Made by a program: the position numbers and the translations under genes. Below are positions 6,074 through 44,281 of a DNA stretch of 45,132 nt, one piece after another; within the stretch, counting starts at the first letter, position 1; every line of letters starts with the position of its first letter. This DNA is from an uncultured bacterium. Lineage in GTDB: Bacteria; Patescibacteriota; Minisyncoccia; Phycocordibacterales; UBA9973. Under the pieces are notes generated by a model. It was not told the origin of the DNA. It saw nothing but the letters and a program-made list of their open reading frames with translations, and made no database searches. The DNA lies in contig CAILJY010000070.1 in assembly GCA_903834665.1 (NCBI GenBank), positions 1 through 45,132 on the forward strand, read 5' to 3'.

Positions 6074-6180
6074 ATAATAAGGATATAAAAATTGGGAGGG
6101 TTTGGCAAATTTTTGGAAATATAAATTAGGATTTAGTCACAAATATTTTTCTGTTGAAAAATCTTGTGATCCTGACTCAG

Positions 6181-6313
6181 TCAAGAAGAGGACTAGAACC
6201 TTACAGGTTCAGTATACCTTTCATATTTTTGAAAATATTAATTTTCAAAAATGTATTCAAGGTTTTCAAGATCCTCTCCCGCAAGCCAAGTAGTTGGCTT
6301 GCTCTGGGCACCA
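6181..6313 (+). ncRNA. tRNA-Leu-partnered structured element (copy B of the tRNA-end-mimic family)
   Basis: Same module order as the 137-nt repeats at 17679-17952: tRNA-Leu-derived arms, hairpin gaac-CTTACAG-gttc, a long AT hairpin, hairpin gcaagccaa-gtag-ttggcttgc, and an end of tctgggcacca. Strand is assigned by analogy with copy A. Confidence 0.45.
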
Positions 6314-6358
6314 TATAAAAAAACTATCTTAAAGATAGTTTTTTTATATGGTGCCCAG
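6304..6358. terminator. Perfect 27+1+27 palindrome with A7/T7-flanked core (bidirectional terminator) overlapping the tRNA-Leu 3' end
   Basis: ctgggcaccatataaaaaaactatctt-a-aagatagtttttttatatggtgcccag. The right arm, 6349-6358, is the tRNA-Leu acceptor 3' strand plus CCA. Confidence 0.7.
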
Positions 6359-6433
6359 GAGAGGACTTGAACCTCCAAGGATTGCTCCACTAGTTCCTAA
6401 GACTAGCGCGTATACCAATTCCGCCACCTGGGC
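6349..6433 (-). tRNA. tRNA-Leu (anticodon TAG), class II long variable arm, CCA encoded
   Basis: The reverse complement gcccaggtggcggaattggtatacgcgctagtcTTAGgaactagtggagcaatccttggaggttcaagtcctctcctgggcacca folds as a cloverleaf with anticodon loop cuUAGga. Confidence 0.93.
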
Positions 6434-6503: not shown

Positions 6504-6528
6504 TTGTATTTGGAAGTTTATATCTTTG

Positions 6529-6600
6529 AGGCCTGGGGCGGAATTGAACCGCCGCATAGAGATTTTGCAGATCTCTGCCTTACCACTTGGCTACCAGGCC
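6529..6600 (-). tRNA. tRNA-Cys (anticodon GCA), no encoded CCA
   Basis: The reverse complement ggcctggtagccaagtggtaaggcagagatctGCAaaatctctatgcggcggttcaattccgccccaggcct has 7-bp acceptor, D, anticodon (cuGCAaa) and T arms. Confidence 0.93.
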
Positions 6601-6647
6601 TTATTAAATATTGAAATAACTTTTATAAAACGTAAACATATATTAAC

Positions 6648-6707
6648 GATCTGCAGATCTCTGTCTATTATTCATTTTGCTCCGCTCATGCCACTTGTTA
6701 CCAGGTT
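6648..6707 (-). pseudogene. Degenerate duplicate of the tRNA-Cys 5' half, interrupted by 24 nt
   Basis: gatctgcagatctctgtct (6648-6666) matches gene segment gattttgcagatctctgcct (6561-6580). ccacttgttaccagg (6691-6705) matches ccacttggctaccagg (6583-6598). No 3' half is present. Confidence 0.6.
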
Positions 6708-6839
6708 GATATTATATTTAACCAGTTGTGCTAGTATATCATAAAATAACTAAATATTAAATGGTCTTATAATATTCTTTATAATATAAGGACATTTTAG
6801 ATATTTGAAAAAGTATTTTTTAAAATCACTAAAAAATAC

Positions 6840-9662: not shown

Positions 9663-10967
9663 ATGTTATTAATAAAGAAAAATATATATTTGGATAATGC
9701 TGGAGCAACTAAAGTAGATAAAGATGTTCGAAAGATCATGGCTTTTTCGGAAAAGATGTTTTTTGCAAACCCGAGTGCTATTTATAAAGACGGAGTAGAA
9801 GTTCGAAATAAGATAGAGGAAGAAAGAACAAAAATAGCCAAACAGATAAATGCTCATAATGATGAGATTATTATAACTTCTAGCGGGACAGAAAGTGATG
9901 CCATGGCAATTTTGGGAACAATTAATAATTATGAATTAAGAATTAAGAATGAAAAGTTAGAATATAAAATTCCACACATTGTAACTTCTAAAATAGAACA
10001 CCCTGCAGTCATGGAAAATTGTCGCTATTTGGAAGATAATGGCAGGGCAGAAGTAACGTATGTTGGAGTTGATAAAAATGGCCTAATTAATTTAGAAGAA
10101 TTAAAAGACTCTTTAAAAGAGAATACAATTCTAGTTTCTATTATGTATGCCAATAATGAGATTGGAACGATTGAACCAATAGAAGAAATTGCAAAAATAA
10201 TACGACATTTTAAGAAAATAAAACAGGGAAAAGAAAATAATTTTTTTGGGTTCTCGGACGAGGGAGGAAGAGGGGCCAGACCCTTCAATAATCATTTTGT
10301 TTTCCCTATTTTTCATACTGATGCGTGTCAGGCTATGAATTATTTATTTACAGAAAATATAGAAAAATTAGGAGTTGATCTGTTGTCTTTTAATAGTTCA
10401 AAAATTTATGGACCAAAAGGAATAGGAATTCTTTATAAAAAACGTAATGTTGATATTTGCCCTTTATATATGGGAGGTGGGCAAGAATTTGGTTTGCATT
10501 CTGGGACAGAAAGTATTTCTCTAATAAAAGGTATATCTCTTGCTTTGGAGATAACAAATAAGATTAAAGAGAAAGAAAATAAAAGACTTACTAAAATTCG
10601 CGATTATGCAATTGATAAATTATTATCTTTATCAGGATTGTATGGATATAAGATAATTCTAAATGGTGGTAGAGAAAATAGATTATCAAACAATGTTAAT
10701 ATTTCAATATCAAATATTTCAAGTGAACTTTTAGTAATTGAATTATCAGCTCAAGGGATTTTTGTTTCAGAGAAAAGTGCTTGTAAAAGTAATGATGATG
10801 GTAAATCTTATGTCATAGATGCAATAAGAAAAGTATGTCCGAGAGATGGGGTTGTTGCAGATGGTTCTTTACGTATTTCATTTGGAAGAGACAATAAGAT
10901 GAGGGATGTGGACGTATTATACAAGGGATTAAGGAAAATTTTAGAGAAATATAAAAACTGGAAATAG
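9663..10967 (+). CDS. Cysteine desulfurase (class V aminotransferase, NifS/IscS-like) carrying an in-frame 81-bp insertion
   Basis: 434 aa. Motifs SSGTESDAMAILG, HTDACQAM and PLP-lysine motif SSKIYGPKGIGILY. The GC-rich insertion encodes ...GKENNFFGFSDEGGRGARPFNNHFVFP... Confidence 0.85.
   Translation: MLLIKKNIYLDNAGATKVDKDVRKIMAFSEKMFFANPSAIYKDGVEVRNKIEEERTKIAKQINAHNDEIIITSSGTESDAMAILGTINNYELRIKNEKLEYKIPHIVTSKIEHPAVMENCRYLEDNGRAEVTYVGVDKNGLINLEELKDSLKENTILVSIMYANNEIGTIEPIEEIAKIIRHFKKIKQGKENNFFGFSDEGGRGARPFNNHFVFPIFHTDACQAMNYLFTENIEKLGVDLLSFNSSKIYGPKGIGILYKKRNVDICPLYMGGGQEFGLHSGTESISLIKGISLALEITNKIKEKENKRLTKIRDYAIDKLLSLSGLYGYKIILNGGRENRLSNNVNISISNISSELLVIELSAQGIFVSEKSACKSNDDGKSYVIDAIRKVCPRDGVVADGSLRISFGRDNKMRDVDVLYKGLRKILEKYKNWK
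10226..10306. repeat. 81-bp GC-rich-core palindromic element inside the cysteine desulfurase CDS
   Basis: Core ggttctcggacgagggaggaagaggggccagacc matches 32/34 positions of the dus copy at 28950-28983. Flanks gggaaaagaaaataatt and aataatcattttgttttccc are inverted repeats. Length is 27 codons. Confidence 0.7.
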
Positions 10968-17654: not shown

Positions 17655-17959
17655 AACTGAGTTTTCGAATTCTACACGCGAGACAAGCAGTTTATTTCGT
17701 TGGGTAGGAATTTCGATCCTTACAGGATCAGTACACCTTTTCCATTCGCGAGTACGCTCATATGGAAAAGGTTTTCGAATCCTACACGAAAGCCAATAAA
17801 TTGGCTTTCTCTCGGCGAGACAAGTAGTTTATTTCGTCGGGTAGGAATTTCGATCCTTACAGGATCAGTACACCTTTTCCGTTCGTGATTACACTCACAT
17901 GGAAAAGGTCTTCGAATCCTACACGAAAGCCAATAAATTGGTTTTCTCTCGGCGAGACA
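17655..17959 (+). ncRNA. Tandem array (2.3 x 137 nt) of the tRNA-end-mimic structured element, tRNA-Tyr-specific arms
   Basis: Units 17679-17815 and 17816-17952 differ at 9 of 137 positions. Truncated copies lie at 17661-17678 and 17953-17959. Stem substitutions are compensatory or give G-U pairs only on the plus strand. Confidence 0.6.
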
Positions 17960-18000: not shown

Positions 18001-18002
18001 TG

Positions 18003-18085
18003 TGCGCCGGGTAGGATTCGAACCTACGTAGGCCGAAGCCGTTTGATTTACAGTCAAATGCAATTGACCACTCTGCCACCGACGC
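18003..18085 (-). tRNA. tRNA-Tyr (anticodon GTA), class II variable arm, no encoded CCA
   Basis: Reverse complement gcgtcggtggcagagtggtcaattgcatttgactGTAaatcaaacggcttcggcctacgtaggttcgaatcctacccggcgca. Confidence 0.93.
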
Positions 18086-24909: not shown

Positions 24910-25773
24910 TTATATTTTTCTAATTTCTCCTAATTCTTCTTTTATTAAATCCTTGATTTCCATTATGGAAAGGAGAGCGTTAGCTTCTGATGTTGGCATT
25001 CCAGAAATTCTAATAAGCTCATCACGTTCAATTGGTTCACGAAGTAAATTTATTATTTTTAATTCTTCTTTTGAACAATCAATGTATTTTTCTTCTTCAG
25101 ATAATATTTTTCTTTCTATTTCAAATCCAAGGGCTTCTAAAATATCATTACTACTAGTTATTGGAGTTGCTCCTTGTTTTATCAGCCAGTTAGTCCCATT
25201 TGAATTTGATGAAAAAGCTGATCCTGGAACAGCCAAAATATCACGATTATAATCAAGAGCCATACGGGCAGTGATCAAAGTCCCTGATTTTTCTTCAGCT
25301 TCTATTATAAGTACAGCTTTTGAAATTCCCGCCATAAGACGATTCCTTTGAGGGAAAGAATAAAGTTGTGATATTGCATTTGGTAAAAATTCTGAAATTA
25401 AACACCCCCCATTATCAACAATTTCTTGAGCAAGTTTTATATTCATTCTAGGATACAAGACACTATTATCAAGTCCTGATCCAGGAAATGAAATTGTAAT
25501 AAGACCATTATCCAGTGCTGCTCTATGAGCAATACTATCTATCCCCATAGCAAGTCCGGAAACTATTACTATTGGATAACCTTTTAATCCATGAATTAAT
25601 TTTTCACAGATATCTTTTCCATAAGAAGTATATTTACGAGATCCAACTACTGCTAAATATATTAGGTTTGGACTAGGAAGTTTGCCTCTTATATATAGAG
25701 TCTTGGGAGGTTGAGGAATTTCGAGTAAGGGTTTAGGAAATTGATCTAATTTTAATTTATAGATATCTTCCAT
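24910..25773 (-). CDS. dprA: DNA-processing protein DprA
   Basis: 287 aa with a Rossmann-like DprA core (VSGLAMGIDSIAHRAAL). Confidence 0.85.
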   Translation of the reverse strand: MEDIYKLKLDQFPKPLLEIPQPPKTLYIRGKLPSPNLIYLAVVGSRKYTSYGKDICEKLIHGLKGYPIVIVSGLAMGIDSIAHRAALDNGLITISFPGSGLDNSVLYPRMNIKLAQEIVDNGGCLISEFLPNAISQLYSFPQRNRLMAGISKAVLIIEAEEKSGTLITARMALDYNRDILAVPGSAFSSNSNGTNWLIKQGATPITSSNDILEALGFEIERKILSEEEKYIDCSKEELKIINLLREPIERDELIRISGMPTSEANALLSIMEIKDLIKEELGEIRKI

Positions 25774-28161: not shown

Positions 28162-29262
28162 ATGAAAAATATTTTTGAAAAATTAGAAAAACCATTTTTT
28201 TGTTTAGCCCCAATGGCCGATGTAACCGATGCGGCTTTTAGAAGTATTATTTGTAAATATGGTAAACCAGATATTTTTTGGACAGAATTTGTTTCGGCTG
28301 ATGGTCTTTCTAGCCCTGGAAGAGAAATCTTAAAAGATAATTTGATTTTTAATAAAAAAGAACATCCTATTGTTGTTCAGCTTTTTTCTTCAAATATAGA
28401 TAAAATGCGCGAGGCCTCAAAATATTGTGCATCTCTTGGTTTTGATGGGATTGATATCAATATGGGGTGCCCAGACCGTTCTGTAGAAAAACAAGGTGCT
28501 GGAGCTGCAATGATAAAAGATATGAAAAAAGCAGGGGAAATAATCCAAGCTGTAAAAGATGGAATAAAAGATTTTAAAAAAAAGGGAAAGACAAAAAATA
28601 TTTCTATATCAGTAAAAACTAGGATTGGATACAATAAAAATCAAATCAAGGAATGGATTCCATTTCTATTATCATGTGGCATTGATGCTTTGACTATTCA
28701 TGCTCGTACACGAAAAGAGATGTCTCTCGTCCCAGCCAGATGGGAGCATATTAAAGAAGTTGTTGAAATTAGAAATAAAATGGGAGTTAAAACGAAGATT
28801 ATAGGGAATGGTGATGTTAGGGATTTAAAACATGGGTATGAACTTGCAAAAGAAACAGGTTGTGACGGAGTGATGATTGGGAGAGCGATATTTGGTAATC
28901 CGTGGTTGTTTACTAATAGTAGGAATGGAATTAATTCAAAATTTTCTCAGGTTCTCGGACGAGGGAGGACGAGGAGCCAGACCAGTTCAAAAATTTTAAT
29001 TAATTCCACTCCTACATTAAAAGAAAAATTAAAAGTTATGTTAGAGCATACAAAATTATTTGAAAAAATACTTGGTAAACATAGGAATTTTGCTATTATG
29101 AAAAAACATTTTAAAGCTTATGTTAATGGTTTTCCTGCCCGCCCTCACGATAGTTCGGGAGCAGGCGGGATTGGAACTAAAGAATTACGCGTAAAACTTA
29201 TGGAAACAAAAAATGCGAAAGAAGTAGAGAAAATAGTTTCTAATTTTCTCAAAAATCATTAA
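28162..29262 (+). CDS. dus: tRNA-dihydrouridine synthase with two GC-rich in-frame insertions
   Basis: 366 aa. FMN-binding TIM-barrel motifs (LAPMADVTDAAFR, GCDGVMIGRAIFGNPWLF). Confidence 0.88.
   Translation: MKNIFEKLEKPFFCLAPMADVTDAAFRSIICKYGKPDIFWTEFVSADGLSSPGREILKDNLIFNKKEHPIVVQLFSSNIDKMREASKYCASLGFDGIDINMGCPDRSVEKQGAGAAMIKDMKKAGEIIQAVKDGIKDFKKKGKTKNISISVKTRIGYNKNQIKEWIPFLLSCGIDALTIHARTRKEMSLVPARWEHIKEVVEIRNKMGVKTKIIGNGDVRDLKHGYELAKETGCDGVMIGRAIFGNPWLFTNSRNGINSKFSQVLGRGRTRSQTSSKILINSTPTLKEKLKVMLEHTKLFEKILGKHRNFAIMKKHFKAYVNGFPARPHDSSGAGGIGTKELRVKLMETKNAKEVEKIVSNFLKNH
28927..29007. repeat. 81-bp GC-rich-core palindromic element inside the dus CDS
   Basis: ggaattaattcaaaatttt ... aaaattttaattaattcc are inverted arms with one indel. 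The core matches the copy at 10226-10306. It is translated as GINSKFSQVLGRGRTRSQTSSKILINS, a different frame from the other copy. Confidence 0.7.
29134..29172. repeat. 39-nt GC-rich hairpin-forming in-frame insertion in dus
   Basis: cctgcccgccctcacgatagttcgggagcaggcgggatt (26/39 G+C) with cccgcc/ggcggg pairing. It encodes PARPHDSSGAGGI between GF and GTKELR. Confidence 0.5.
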
Positions 29263-32708: not shown

Positions 32709-32779
32709 TTGGGGATCGTCTAATGGTAGGACAGTGGCCTTTGAAGCCATTAATTGGGGTTCGAATCCCTGTCCCCAAG
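32709..32779 (+). tRNA. tRNA-Gln (anticodon TTG), U1-A72 and G73, no encoded CCA
   Basis: ttggggatcgtctaatggtaggacagtggcctTTGaagccattaattggggttcgaatccctgtccccaag folds as a cloverleaf. Confidence 0.9.
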
Positions 32780-33065
32780 CAAAATTAAGAGAAACGCAAT
32801 TTTGCGTGGGGAAGAAAATGCGATTACGCATTTTCGCCAGGGATTCGGAGACCCTGAGTATATCGCACGGAGCTTTAGCGAGTACGATACGAAGGGTGTA
32901 CAGAATCTGTAAGATTCGAAAAGTGTAATCACGGTCCCTGTCAGGGATTCGAAAGACTTTTCCTTGCCGAAGGCGGAAAAGTACCCGCGACCGTAGGGCG
33001 AGAAATTCCCTGTCCCAATCTGTAAGATTCGAAAAGTGTACTCACGGTCCATGTCCCAATTTGTA
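32780..33065 (-). ncRNA. One full, one rearranged and one partial copy of the tRNA-end-mimic element with tRNA-Gln-specific arms
   Basis: Read on the minus strand, the module order equals that of the tRNA-Tyr copies. 32904-32942 and 33017-33055 match at 37/39 positions. Hairpin gaaaatgcg-atta-cgcattttc lies at 32814-32835. Confidence 0.5.
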
Positions 33066-34472: not shown

Positions 34473-35576
34473 TTAATTTTCTTCTTGCGGTTTTTCAATA
34501 GTGATAGTTTCAATTCCGACTGCTTCGCCGGTTATTCTCATTACGTCTTTGTCTATTTTCTTGAATTCACTACTAGAATTATCGTAATGGTTTATAACAG
34601 TTTTCAATGAATTTCCGATTTTTAGATGATATTCATTATATGATTTTAAATGTTTAGATAAGTCTTCAACTTTTTTTATGATTTCTTTTGCGGATTTCTC
34701 AATTTTAAATGCTTTGAATCCATAAACTACAGATTGTAGATATGCCATAAAAGTAGTAGGCGACACGATGATAACTTTTTTGTCGTTATAAGCATAGTCA
34801 ATAAGATTTCTAGTATTTACTTTTATTGAACCAACTTCATTTACCAATAAATCATAGTAAATTGCTTCAGCTGGAATGTACATAAAAGCAAAAGGTAAAG
34901 TTCCTTCTTCTATTTTAATATATTTTGCTGTTTCGTCTATTCTTTTTTTGAGATCATTTTTGAATTCTTTTTCGAGCTCTTCTCTTTGTTTGTCATCAAT
35001 TGCGTGCACTACTCTATCGTAATTGTCCAAAGAAAATTTTGCATCAATTGGTATTATACCTTCTTTTACTTTTATTATTGCATCAACTTTATCTTTATTT
35101 TTAAATTCATATTGCATTTCATATTGTCCAGGGGCAAGTGTGTTAGATAATATTAATTCTAAAGATGCTTCCCCCCAATTACCACGCTGTTTCTGGTGTT
35201 TAAGAGTTTTTTCTAAACTGCCAAGTTGTTCAGCTATTGTAACAAACTGCCTAGTTGCTTCATTTGTTTTTGTTTGTTCTCTCGCAACATCAATGAGACT
35301 TTTACTCATTTGTTCATTAATATCTTTTAGTAATTTTTGAGATTCCGAGAATTGATTATAAACAGCTTCCCTAGTTTCTTTTTGAGATTCACCCAGTTTA
35401 TTATCAATTATTCCAATTTTTGTATCTATATTTCTAGATAGATCATTCATTTGTTGGAATAATAATTGTATTGAATTATCTGCTTTTTCTTCGGGTTTCT
35501 TTTTAAAAATAAGAATAATCCCCGTGATTAATCCGACTAAAATGAGAATAAGAAGAATTATAATTAGTGTTTCCAT
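34473..35576 (-). CDS. rmuC: DNA recombination protein RmuC
   Basis: 367 aa with an N-terminal TM helix, a coiled coil, and an RmuC nuclease-like C-terminal domain. Confidence 0.85.
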   Translation of the reverse strand: METLIIILLILILVGLITGIILIFKKKPEEKADNSIQLLFQQMNDLSRNIDTKIGIIDNKLGESQKETREAVYNQFSESQKLLKDINEQMSKSLIDVAREQTKTNEATRQFVTIAEQLGSLEKTLKHQKQRGNWGEASLELILSNTLAPGQYEMQYEFKNKDKVDAIIKVKEGIIPIDAKFSLDNYDRVVHAIDDKQREELEKEFKNDLKKRIDETAKYIKIEEGTLPFAFMYIPAEAIYYDLLVNEVGSIKVNTRNLIDYAYNDKKVIIVSPTTFMAYLQSVVYGFKAFKIEKSAKEIIKKVEDLSKHLKSYNEYHLKIGNSLKTVINHYDNSSSEFKKIDKDVMRITGEAVGIETITIEKPQEEN

Positions 35577-37414: not shown

Positions 37415-38143
37415 TTATATCAATTTCCCCAAATAATGTTTTAAAGTGTAAATCCAATCTTCTTCATTTTCTGGATTGTTTTGTTCTTTTTGGTTGAGCA
37501 TCCATTCTAAATATCCACGGTCAATTTGAGCAACTTCTTCAACAGTTTTACCTGTATATTTTCCAAAGTTGAACATATTCATTAGAGAAGGACGGCTAGA
37601 AATTTCAATCATCTTTTCTATGGCTTCTTCTTCATTTATATTTTCTTCATCCATTATTTTCTTTAATAATCTCTCGTATAATTTTTCAAGAACAAGAACA
37701 TCCCCAAGTGCATCATGAGCAGAAGCTTCAATATCGATATCAAGATAATATCTTAAATATTGTAAACGATATTGTGGAATAATATTATTTTTATCAAGGG
37801 CTCGTGCAACACGAAGAGTACAAATAGTATTGGTTGGTTTTATTCCTTCATTTTTAATTATTTCAAAATCAAATTTATTATTGTGAGCTACCATTACTGA
37901 ATTTGGATCTTCAAGCATTGTTTTTATTTTTTGATATTCAGGGCTTTCTTTGAAAGTATTTTTATTGGTGACCATTTTATTTGTTATATGAGTTATCGCA
38001 CTAGCTTCAGGGGGAATAGGGATAGATGGTTTGTATAATTCACAAAAAGTCTCACCATCTGTTTTATAAGCTAATTGACAAAGAAAATCTTTTTTGGGTT
38101 CATTCCCAGTTGTTTCAGTATCTAAAAATATAATTTGTTTCAT
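37415..38143 (-). CDS. DEDDh 3'-5' exonuclease (DnaQ-like) with a DUF3820-like C-terminal domain
   Basis: 242 aa. Exo motifs FLDTETTG, HNNKFDFEII and HDALGDV. The C-terminal FGKYTGKTVEEVAQIDRGYLEWML resembles DUF3820. Confidence 0.8.
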   Translation of the reverse strand: MKQIIFLDTETTGNEPKKDFLCQLAYKTDGETFCELYKPSIPIPPEASAITHITNKMVTNKNTFKESPEYQKIKTMLEDPNSVMVAHNNKFDFEIIKNEGIKPTNTICTLRVARALDKNNIIPQYRLQYLRYYLDIDIEASAHDALGDVLVLEKLYERLLKKIMDEENINEEEAIEKMIEISSRPSLMNMFNFGKYTGKTVEEVAQIDRGYLEWMLNQKEQNNPENEEDWIYTLKHYLGKLI

Positions 38144-44015: not shown

Positions 44016-44039
44016 AAAAATCCCTGAAGGGATTTTTTT
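44014..44039. terminator. Bidirectional terminator after obg
   Basis: aaaaaaatccct-gaa-gggattttttt. Confidence 0.7.
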
Positions 44040-44042
44040 ATT

Positions 44043-44208
44043 TTTGTGCCCCGTGAGGGAATCATGATTACATGTTCGGTCACTCATAATTTTCTGGAGA
44101 AAATTTGTGCGACCCCGACTCAGCTCGTCAGCCTCCGTCTTTCGATTTTTTTAAACATACATTTGGGTATGTTTAAAAATCACAGATTTTGTGCTTCGCA
44201 AAAATTTG
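44043..44208 (+). repeat. Degenerate tRNA-end-mimic element bounded by 21-nt direct repeats of the tRNA-Lys 3' end
   Basis: tttgtgccccgtgagggaatc occurs at 44043-44063 and 44205-44225. Internal hairpins lie at 44088-44105 and 44153-44174, with a T-loop-like tctttcgatt at 44138-44147. Confidence 0.45.
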
Positions 44209-44281
44209 TGCCCCGTGAGGGAATCGAACCCCCGACCATCTCCTTAAGAGGGAGCTGCTCTACCAGCTGAGCTAACAGGGC
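44209..44281 (-). tRNA. tRNA-Lys (anticodon CTT), no encoded CCA
   Basis: Reverse complement gccctgttagctcagctggtagagcagctccctCTTaaggagatggtcgggggttcgattccctcacggggca. Confidence 0.92.

Follow-up and report, generated by a model that had tools for sequence, protein, structure and literature searches.

What is the sequence that follows the tRNA-Leu(UAG) gene of an uncultured patescibacterium (GenBank assembly GCA_903834665.1, contig CAILJY010000070.1), where the end of the gene is met again as an inverted copy within a perfect 55-bp palindrome and once more as a decayed direct repeat? The gene lies in an AT-rich, Nomurabacteria/Paceibacterota-like stretch of 45,132 nt (hereafter the window), in which there are five tRNA genes and a 16S gene of which only the start is included. 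The answer that we lean towards, with modest confidence, is that positions 6181–6358 are one copy of a family of non-coding insertion elements of Patescibacteria (here called type A), in which an inverted triplication of the host gene's 3′ end carries an apex that is moved in trans. The family occupies a fixed position and polarity relative to its host genes, has arms that match those genes, and turns over at the level of DNA. The features of the tRNA-Leu locus are as follows.

6136–6180, plus strand: type-B remnant (GTCAC-hairpin-...), homologous to the intact type B at the orthologous locus L121 (caagatttttcaacagaaaaatatttgtgac versus gcgagatttttcagcagaaaaatacttgtgacc)
6181–6200, plus strand: far arm tcaagaagaggactagaacc, which when read on the tRNA strand repeats the tRNA-Leu T-loop-to-acceptor region directly but in degenerate form (16/20)
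6196–6218, plus strand: conserved core found by core scans, composed of hairpin SL2 gaacc-ttaca-ggttc (6196–6210) and agtatacc (6211–6218)
6216–6263, plus strand: SL3, a long variable AT hairpin closed by ACCTT/AAGGT, from the predicted fold
6261–6279, plus strand: T-loop and T-stem 3′ strand of tRNA-Leu as a sense copy (ggttttcaagatcctctcc), enlarged by three extra bases, from the sequence (family consensus AAGGTYTTCGAWTCC)
6281–6302, plus strand: SL4 hairpin gcaagccaa-gtag-ttggcttgc at the T-stem/acceptor boundary of the sense arm, from sequence, alignment and fold
6303–6313, plus strand: tctgggcacca, which forms the acceptor part of the sense arm and repeats, in inverted form, the acceptor 3′ strand, discriminator and CCA of tRNA-Leu, from a 9/9 sequence match
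6304–6358, strand-neutral: perfect 27+1+27 palindrome comprising the true tRNA 3′ end, an AT-rich hairpin and the inverted 3′-end copy (repeat search, I16)
6314–6348, symmetric on both strands: AT-rich terminator-like hairpin with A7 and T7 flanks, read from the sequence
6349–6433, minus strand: tRNA-Leu(UAG) gene with encoded CCA (ARAGORN; Rfam tRNA, 57.8 bits)

The palindrome had been described in an initial annotation made from the sequence alone, and the repeat search confirmed it. Its arms (6304–6330 and 6332–6358) are 27 nt each, 100% complementary and separated by 1 nt, the right arm ends with the last 10 nt of the real tRNA-Leu (6349–6358), and it is the sole perfect inverted repeat of such size among the longest pairs listed for the window. 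The match of tgggcacca (6305–6313), on the strand opposite the gene, to the tRNA-Leu acceptor 3′ strand, discriminator and CCA is likewise complete at nine of nine positions. The palindrome is not an assembly artefact, because an independent same-species assembly (L130; L numbers denote the loci compared) is 100% identical across it. Three other same-species contigs (L128, L129, and L131) stop within or at the edge of the 55 bp, as assemblers break at palindromes, and no polymorphism was found among the same-species contigs at the site, all being 100% identical. Within the element, the palindrome is the junction (junction 1) of the inverted triplication at which the real gene end (S), a terminator-like hairpin and the inverted copy (AS) meet. 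The terminator at its centre is the part of the original description that stands only in part: the A7 and T7 flanks are present, but the hairpin has only two G-C pairs and was not called by a consensus terminator scan. GC-richer canonical bidirectional terminators fill the equivalent slot in most family members, and by analogy with these the hairpin of the tRNA-Leu copy may be a terminator.

The remainder of the element, 6181–6313, follows the module order of the repeats beside the tRNA-Tyr gene while its arms come from tRNA-Leu, as first proposed and as borne out by alignment and shared exact blocks: the Leu copy and two Tyr copies have in common the core CCTTACAGGWTCAGTAYACCTTT, the motif AAGGTYTTC, and the AAGCCAA..TTGG hairpin, whose agccaa/ttggct centre had already been noticed. 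The exact 20-mer CCTTACAGGTTCAGTATACC occupies 6199–6218. A count by hand reproduced the 16/20 match between tcaagaagaggactagaacc (6181–6200) and the tRNA-Leu T-arm/acceptor in antisense; on the tRNA strand this segment is a decayed far copy of the gene end (S_far). The core hairpin, agtatacc, the AT hairpin closed by acctt/aaggt and the hairpin at 6281–6302 are all where the initial annotation placed them, and SL2, SL3, and SL4 all appear in the minimum-energy fold (z = −5.8 on either strand). The sense T-loop/T-stem copy is also present, although the insertion that sets ggttttcaagatcctctcc apart from the real ggttcaagtcctctcc amounts to three bases (tt and a) and not to one as had been stated, and an extra YT is family-wide (GGTYTTCRA). 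An orthologue of SL4 occurs in L132, and the position of this hairpin is conserved across members while its sequence is variable. A covariance model built from 50 family members scores 6185–6277 at 72 bits (E 1e-16), a value that is partly circular, as is that of the window Tyr copy, because both of these copies are in the training set as its two members from the window.

The family extends far beyond this contig. The exact 20-mer core (CCTTACAGGNTCAGTAYACC / CCTTACAGGNTCAGTANACC), scanned against one genome per prokaryotic species, is present in at least 120 genome stretches, all but one of which (a Xenorhabdus contig) are Patescibacteria or unclassified metagenome-assembled genomes (MAGs). 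The matches listed include Saccharibacteria, Parcubacteria/Paceibacterota, Nomurabacteria, Kaiserbacteria, Zambryskibacteria, and others, and 86 of the 126 exact matches among them lie less than 300 nt (mostly 100–135 nt) past the 3′ end of an opposite-strand tRNA gene. The host isotypes in the same list are Ser, Lys, Arg, Ala, Val, Asp, Gln, Glu, Tyr, and Leu, and further Ile, Cys, Gly, Asn, Phe, Trp, His, and Met. A profile search recovered 101 copies convergent with a tRNA gene, four co-oriented with one, and 43 without a tRNA gene within 450 nt. Rfam 15, at gathering and E-value thresholds, yielded no family for the element, either in the window or in the extended elements of eight loci, and holds nothing that resembles type A or its sister type B; on the window it returned only palindrome-driven miRNA-like noise at 6295–6369. 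ARAGORN and Rfam detected no tRNA or tRNA-like structure at 6181–6313 on either strand, even at E ≤ 10, and found only the real tRNA-Leu. Full-text literature searches yielded no description of the element family, the closest conceptual match being TIGR-Tas. With a core so widely shared, the element is a major feature of the genomes of a very large bacterial radiation, described neither in Rfam nor in the literature searched, and the copies apparently form an undescribed family of small non-coding hairpins that is widespread in Patescibacteria.

Type-A elements are about 130 nt long, non-coding and hairpin-rich, and longer composite forms hold both type-A and type-B cores. Read on the tRNA strand, the layout is S, terminator-like hairpin, AS(acceptor), SL4, AS(T-stem/T-loop), SL3, core, and S_far, where S is the real tRNA from about G53/T54 in the T-loop to its 3′ end (approximately 21–25 nt) and AS is the inverted copy of S. 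The core on this strand is GGTRTACTG-GAWCC-TGTAA-GGWTC, i.e., GGTRTACTGAWCCTGTAAGGWTC, and S_far, whose T-loop often contains a mini-hairpin of 14 nt, runs once more from the T-loop through the T-stem 3′ strand to the acceptor. Compensatory changes maintain SL2, SL4, and the base of SL3 while their sequences turn over. Among the 50 members, the SL3 base has GC 24 and CG 21 times at column pair 39/79 and UA 35 and GC 11 times at pair 37/81, the middle pair of SL2 is UA in 21, AU in 19, and CG in 8, and the SL2 stem occurs as GAACC, GATCC, GACCC, GAAAC, and GAATC. Conservation is highest at unpaired positions, namely the TTACA loop, AGTAYACC, and the CTCA bulge of SL3, and the exactness of the core across lineages suggests a selected contact.

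The window itself holds the following further copies.

17661–17951, plus strand: two tandem 137-nt type-A copies (17678–17814 and 17815–17951; 93% identical) and a partial third (repeats D1 and D15)
32837–33041, minus strand: two variant type-A copies, 32837–32928 (50.9 bits) and 32941–33041 (15.8 bits), from the covariance model
44026–44150, plus strand: type-B element downstream of tRNA-Lys (44208–44281, minus strand) with a direct repeat of GTGCCCCGTGAGGGAATC, from the sequence

The tandem copies lie downstream of tRNA-Tyr (18002–18085, minus strand) and score 80.5 bits each, and the variant pair lies downstream of tRNA-Gln (32709–32780, plus strand). In the Gln region (32790–33060), one copy has the core GGTGTACAGAATCTGTAAGATTC and the second has a GTACC...GTAG... 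variant, as in L173, L192, L201, and L217; the far arms of both contain the 14-nt mini-hairpin AAGTGTAMTCACGG. In the type-B sister element, the repeated GTGCCCCGTGAGGGAATC is the 3′ end of tRNA-Lys, the copy has its own upstream terminator, and the core is GGTCAC-hairpin-GCGACCCCG...CTCCGKCTTTCRA (also written GGTCAC-hairpin-GTGCGACCCCGACTCAGC...GCCTCCGTCTTTCGA), which at the loci examined lies downstream of tRNAs in 11 of 13 matches. The covariance model finds exactly five type-A copies in the window, all downstream of tRNA genes (Tyr twice, Leu once, and Gln twice), and the core pattern with up to three mismatches has four matches versus 0.08 expected. Patescibacteria have tiny genomes with mostly single-copy tRNA genes, yet four of the five tRNA genes in the window bear an element.

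The arms are copies of the particular gene that each element adjoins. Scored against its own tRNA, the far arm has a mean of 9.25, compared with 4.52 for other isoacceptors, with 51% of the own-tRNA scores above the 99th percentile of the other-isoacceptor scores. The best 9-mer of the sense acceptor arm has, family-wide, a mean of 1.85 mismatches to its own tRNA versus 3.33 to other isotypes, and the 9-mer means for the arms overall are 1.85–2.15 for the own tRNA versus 3.3–3.8 for controls. The direct repeat begins at G53/T54 (−23/−24), or at −15 after the 14-nt mini-hairpin insert, and in the far arm of the tRNA-Leu copy positions −26 to −8 of the real end align with positions 4 to 22 of the copy. 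The length of the repeat varies between 12 and more than 45 nt, because its right end is variable, usually stopping at the tRNA 3′ end and sometimes continuing into the terminator. CCA/TGG occurs in the arms only where the gene encodes CCA; otherwise the copies follow the genomic trailer. The same layout is found at the 3′ end of a protein gene (last 12–15 nt, L101) and at a non-tRNA sequence (L023). The apex and the arms have separate histories, because near-identical apexes (SL3 94–97% identical) occur in the arms of different isotypes (Val/Ser, Arg/Trp, Glu/Gln, and Lys/Tyr). Arms at one locus also change in concert: cacca...tggtg in the window corresponds to cac aat...att gtg in the orthologue L132, and a G/A polymorphism in the tRNA-Tyr acceptor is mirrored in the inverted copy at approximately 12 of 14 loci, as read by eye from the sequences.

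Such arms might be taken as the outcome of purely local template switching at hairpins (palindrome extension or tandem inversion duplication) with no mobile entity involved. Direct-inverted-direct order with junction hairpins is the signature of inverted triplications (tandem inversion duplication, TID, and origin-dependent inverted-repeat amplification, ODIRA), and type-A elements show it as S-AS-S with hairpins at both junctions. As in TID/ODIRA and quasi-palindrome template switching, the arms are concerted, the window palindrome is perfect, and short palindromic extensions of the tRNA end are still seen at ‘empty’, apex-less loci (L123 gcacaaac..gtttgtgc; L197, L198, and L218). However, those systems are sporadic local rearrangements, whereas the same conserved foreign core always sits at one type-A junction, and this explains neither a discrete 150-nt insertion nor the recurrence of an identical 20-nt core and a homologous SL3 beside unrelated tRNA genes (more than 100 loci, in more than 100 genomes). 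Template switching alone is refuted as a complete explanation, and an origin without any mobile entity is highly improbable; template switching may nevertheless build the arms without supplying the apex.

Orthologous loci occur both filled and empty. The context of the tRNA-Leu locus is conserved (IF2, RbfA, tRNA-Cys, tRNA-Leu, CDF transporter, and SecG), and its orthologues have the following states.

L123 and L133: tRNA-Leu orthologues, empty
L121: tRNA-Leu orthologue with type B only
L132: tRNA-Leu orthologue with type A, the whole promoter-tRNA-hairpin-element block being inverted
L126 and L127: tRNA-Leu orthologues with a deleted mini-copy, also inverted
L134: tRNA-Leu orthologue with a composite element

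The suggestion in the initial annotation that the palindrome marks a recombination site is supported, as it fits the empty (L123 and L133), type-B (L121), mini-copy (L126), and inverted (L126 and L132) states. At the parB-tRNA-Tyr locus, sampled in 80 metagenome contigs, 39 orthologues have no type-A copy and 13 have one, and the window has 2.2 copies. L145 and L160 form a clean filled/empty pair, separated by an insertion of about 150 nt with a perfect 21-nt direct repeat (TTCGAATCCTACCCGGCGCAC), in which the original terminator and an older type-B element come after the far copy. Chained A-B-A arrays occur at the tRNA-Tyr locus, nested or chained copies in L017, L045, L118, L152, and L156, and truncated copies in L193 and L203. 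Together, these states support the conclusion that the element is mobile or recombinogenic in its behaviour. Inversion relative to conserved flanks also affects entire tRNA genes along with their promoter and element, namely tRNA-Leu in L126, L127, L132, and L136, and tRNA-Tyr is flipped in four contigs (L147, L216, L176, and L196); in the patescibacterial relatives compared, single tRNA genes seem to have been inverted repeatedly.

The filled/empty pair also bears on a second explanation, in which the elements are attachment-type junctions or scars. A small circular or folded single-stranded DNA element with its own tRNA 3′ end and terminator would be recombined at the T-loop by an Xer- or integrase-like tyrosine recombinase, and the AS/S hairpin would be a folded double-strand mimic of the target, like integron attC or CTX phage. 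As at the attL-attR sites of phages and integrative and conjugative elements (ICEs) that use tRNA 3′ halves, the direct repeat runs from the T-loop to the tRNA 3′ end (21 nt and perfect in L145), the gene is left intact, and tandem arrays form at one tRNA; such a repeat is reportedly the classical identity block of tRNA-integrating elements. The displaced copy retains the original trailer and terminator, while the gene-proximal copy has a different terminator (L079; L145 versus L160). Small cargo open reading frames (ORFs) or islets sometimes lie between element and tRNA (L004, L050, L053, and L054), and the conserved SL3 bulge recalls the extrahelical bases of folded attC. Against this, the elements are only about 130 nt long and encode no integrase, and no tyrosine or serine recombinase family recurs near them (674 ORFs at 120 loci) or is present among the window ORFs scanned. 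In IMG/VR viral contigs the element is absent save for three chance matches inside a coding sequence. A single core serves nearly all isotypes as well as some non-tRNA genes and coding-sequence ends, whereas the core sites of integrases are specific in sequence; ordinary attL/attR sites have no such inverted copy, and the type-B insert of L121 leaves the tRNA end undisplaced. We regard this explanation as improbable, ranking it below an RNA role.

A third explanation starts from the folds. The element would be a functional structured RNA, either a cis-acting 3′ trailer read through from the tRNA or a convergent small RNA gene that shares the bidirectional terminator; pairing of the antisense arm with the 3′ half of the tRNA, or masking by the sense arm, would control 3′ maturation, CCA status, termination, or stability. 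The predicted folds are strong (z approximately −5 to −6), the hairpins are preserved by compensatory changes, and the top-conserved positions are unpaired. The polarity towards tRNA genes is strict (101 versus 4), module boundaries match tRNA domain boundaries (SL4 at the T-stem/acceptor junction), and most of the window's tRNA genes have an element. The tRNA-sense strand also folds better in 59 of 75 copies, but this bias reflects base composition and is gone in a strand-symmetric mismatch test. That test takes 7-bp helices with Watson-Crick pairs at all six flanking positions and looks at the pair in the middle; the mismatches were GT 18, AC 24, and other 75, near the random 1:1:4, and no enrichment of G-U wobble was found on either strand among the 117 helix mismatches. 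Moreover, the element is dispensable, being absent from orthologous loci of close relatives; on the motif strand, a terminator directly precedes many copies without room for a promoter, and no promoter-like site precedes 6181. An RNA function would not need the host's own sequence as a stem, the protein gene of L101 has the same layout, and there is no match to an Rfam family. A DNA-level entity or a single-stranded DNA form is favoured over an RNA role, because there is no wobble excess, terminators lie upstream, and the copies follow the gene and not the mature tRNA. The RNA explanation is accordingly unlikely, and the proposal in the initial annotation that read-through transcripts could lock the acceptor and CCA into a 27-bp helix and so affect 3′ maturation is not favoured as a reading of the sequence.

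Under the insertion-element explanation that we prefer, the apex would be the moving part, non-autonomous and moved by a trans-acting enzyme, and would enter at the T-loop (around GGTTC|GA) of an S copy. The host gene could be spared in either of two ways: the entering DNA may bring a replacement 3′ end and terminator (Campbell-type or site-specific entry through S), or the target S may be duplicated. Hairpin-nucleated template switching or gene conversion (quasi-palindrome correction) would then maintain the complementarity of the arms to the host and would also account for the perfect palindrome; this arm-matching step is supported by that palindrome, by the concerted arm changes, and by the palindromic extensions at ‘empty’ loci. 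Movement in trans is proposed because no recombinase is recurrent nearby and viral contigs lack the element. Functions of the host that could act on such palindromes are encoded in the window.

24910–25773, minus strand: DprA gene
34473–35576, minus strand: RmuC gene
37415–38143, minus strand: ExoX-like exonuclease gene

In Escherichia coli, RmuC reportedly limits recombination at short inverted repeats, and all three window genes encode host recombination functions.

Several observations weigh against the insertion-element explanation. No transposase, integrase/recombinase, HUH, or reverse transcriptase (RT) gene is recurrent among the 674 ORFs within 2.5 kb of the 120 loci, none of these gene classes is present among the window ORFs scanned, and the search for an autonomous copy found none. 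Copies within one genome are old and diverged, those of Leu, Tyr, and Gln having only the core in common, and give no sign of a recent burst; selfish repeats, moreover, do not usually have a 20-nt core that is exact across class-level lineages, unpaired positions included. The type-B insert of L121 lies downstream of an untouched tRNA trailer, so that entry at the T-loop cannot be universal. SL4 is confined to the sense arm and the mini-hairpin to the far arm, a conserved asymmetry that simple fold-back copying fails to predict. Finally, the wobble test comprises 117 mismatches only. In a hunt for autonomous copies, loci with a core-tRNA spacing of 0.4–1.5 kb held unrelated small ORFs. The ORFs near the 120 loci cluster into housekeeping families only, plus one family of 240 aa with a helix-turn-helix-like N-terminus and a ...LYWGEGTKSGG... 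motif, found at L011 (3164–3886) and four other loci, within about 2 kb of the elements and with no Pfam match.

The match between arm and host can also be read as a targeting device. The inverted arm, with the SL2 5′ strand, would pair as single-stranded DNA or RNA with the last 21–25 nt of the gene, a conserved host or unlinked enzyme that recognizes nothing but the invariant apex would integrate the element, and a re-templated arm would retarget it; in an alternative form, a self-complementary ‘dumbbell’ replicon of about 137 nt would enter through S. The series S-tip-AS-apex is formally such a dumbbell, and the 137-nt tandem repetition would also fit a rolling-circle or hairpin replicon. 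Carrying the complement of its own target, and both target strands, is a property that the element shares with IS110 bridge RNA, TIGR-Tas, the EBS/IBS pairings of group II introns, and the guide tetranucleotides of IS608, and TIGR ‘stem arrays’ with an inactive-RuvC Tas clade have been reported in Candidate Phyla Radiation (CPR) bacteria (PMC12045711). Unlike in IS110 and TIGR systems, the type-A arms complement each other over the same 21–25 nt and not over adjacent half-sites. No IS110, Tas, or RT genes were found near the 120 loci, and box C/D-like motifs were not identified. An IS110 bridge-RNA or TIGR-type element was rejected, as there is no IS110 or Tas ORF cluster nearby and the arms cover the same sequence. 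Guidance by the arms is hypothetical and distinctly unlikely. If true, it would be a self-guided, programmable insertion system that has no protein gene and restores the 3′ ends of essential genes.

The insertion-element explanation was further compared with known classes of repeats. Repetitive extragenic palindromic (REP) sequences and their BIME and REPIN assemblies, miniature inverted-repeat transposable elements (MITEs), the palindrome-associated transposable elements (PATEs) of IS200/IS605, Correia elements, and Rickettsia palindromic elements (RPEs) are likewise short, non-coding, hairpin-forming, non-autonomous, and extragenic after genes. REP-type repeats often double as terminators and are inherited vertically with occasional movement, and many have conserved bulged or loop bases recognized by a trans-acting HUH (RAYT/TnpA) enzyme. 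However, they have fixed ends and do not copy the flanking gene, whereas the type-A stem is the host 3′ end in both orientations and depends on the host. Type-A elements also differ in being almost exclusively at tRNA 3′ ends with strict polarity, and neither a GTAG/REP signature nor a RAYT gene was seen. In a test for REP/PATE elements, hairpins with conserved bulges or loops were present, but so was a long direct target repeat. Integron attC and CTX-phage attP sites resemble type A in that an imperfect inverted repeat gives a branched hairpin with conserved extrahelical features, variable terminal structure, and tandem arrays; they differ in that the type-A stem is the target's own sequence, with no R-box-like ends or dependence on IntI/Xer shown.

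Other candidate identities were rejected. The arms of a classical MITE would not vary with the host tRNA, nor would its repeat range from 12 to over 45 nt with a variable right end. A tRNA-primed retroelement (primer-binding site) does not agree with copies that track gene and trailer and have CCA only where it is encoded, and a diversity-generating retroelement or retron was dismissed as there is no RT gene nearby and repeats show no adenine-specific differences. For hammerhead, box C/D, H/ACA, T-box, Y-RNA-like, and permuted tRNA structures, the required boxes or pairings are absent by eye, and ARAGORN reported none. Resemblances to dif/Xer, the IncP nic site, the geminivirus-type nonanucleotide, and the IS91 GTTC target were by eye only, and are contradicted where covariation bears on the relevant base.

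A conserved apex clasped by copies of the host end implies a mechanism that reads or copies its target, whether by guided insertion, a carried replacement end, or hairpin-templated synthesis, and any such mechanism would let mobile DNA exploit essential genes as safe harbours in a manner that is new. There are practical effects as well, as assemblies are broken at the palindromes, tRNA genes are flipped, and the annotation of tRNAs and terminators in MAGs could be misled.

Three smaller observations concern the surroundings of the elements. Upstream of tRNA-Cys (6528–6600), the 5′ half of that gene is partially copied at 6645–6715 on the minus strand, the copy being interrupted in its D-loop region by an insertion of 27 nt; the module is also present in L121 and is duplicated in L134, and it may be a 5′-side counterpart of the 3′-side elements. 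At other loci, larger inserts lie exactly between the element terminator and the tRNA (L054 at 2550–2600, L046, and L103; L102 and L107), leaving only GTGA or GCTG of the tRNA end and beginning with conserved ends ..TATCCTTTGCACGAAC.. or ..GGGTCGAYGTTGGAAC.., which suggests that other mobile islets use the same terminator/tRNA junction, and no integrase was found within the 5 kb examined in L054. Finally, the AT-rich window contains a 44-nt GC-rich direct repeat (AATTTTYTYRGGTTCTCGGACGAGGGAGGAMGAGGRGCCAGACC, 89% identical) at 10239–10282 and 28940–28983.

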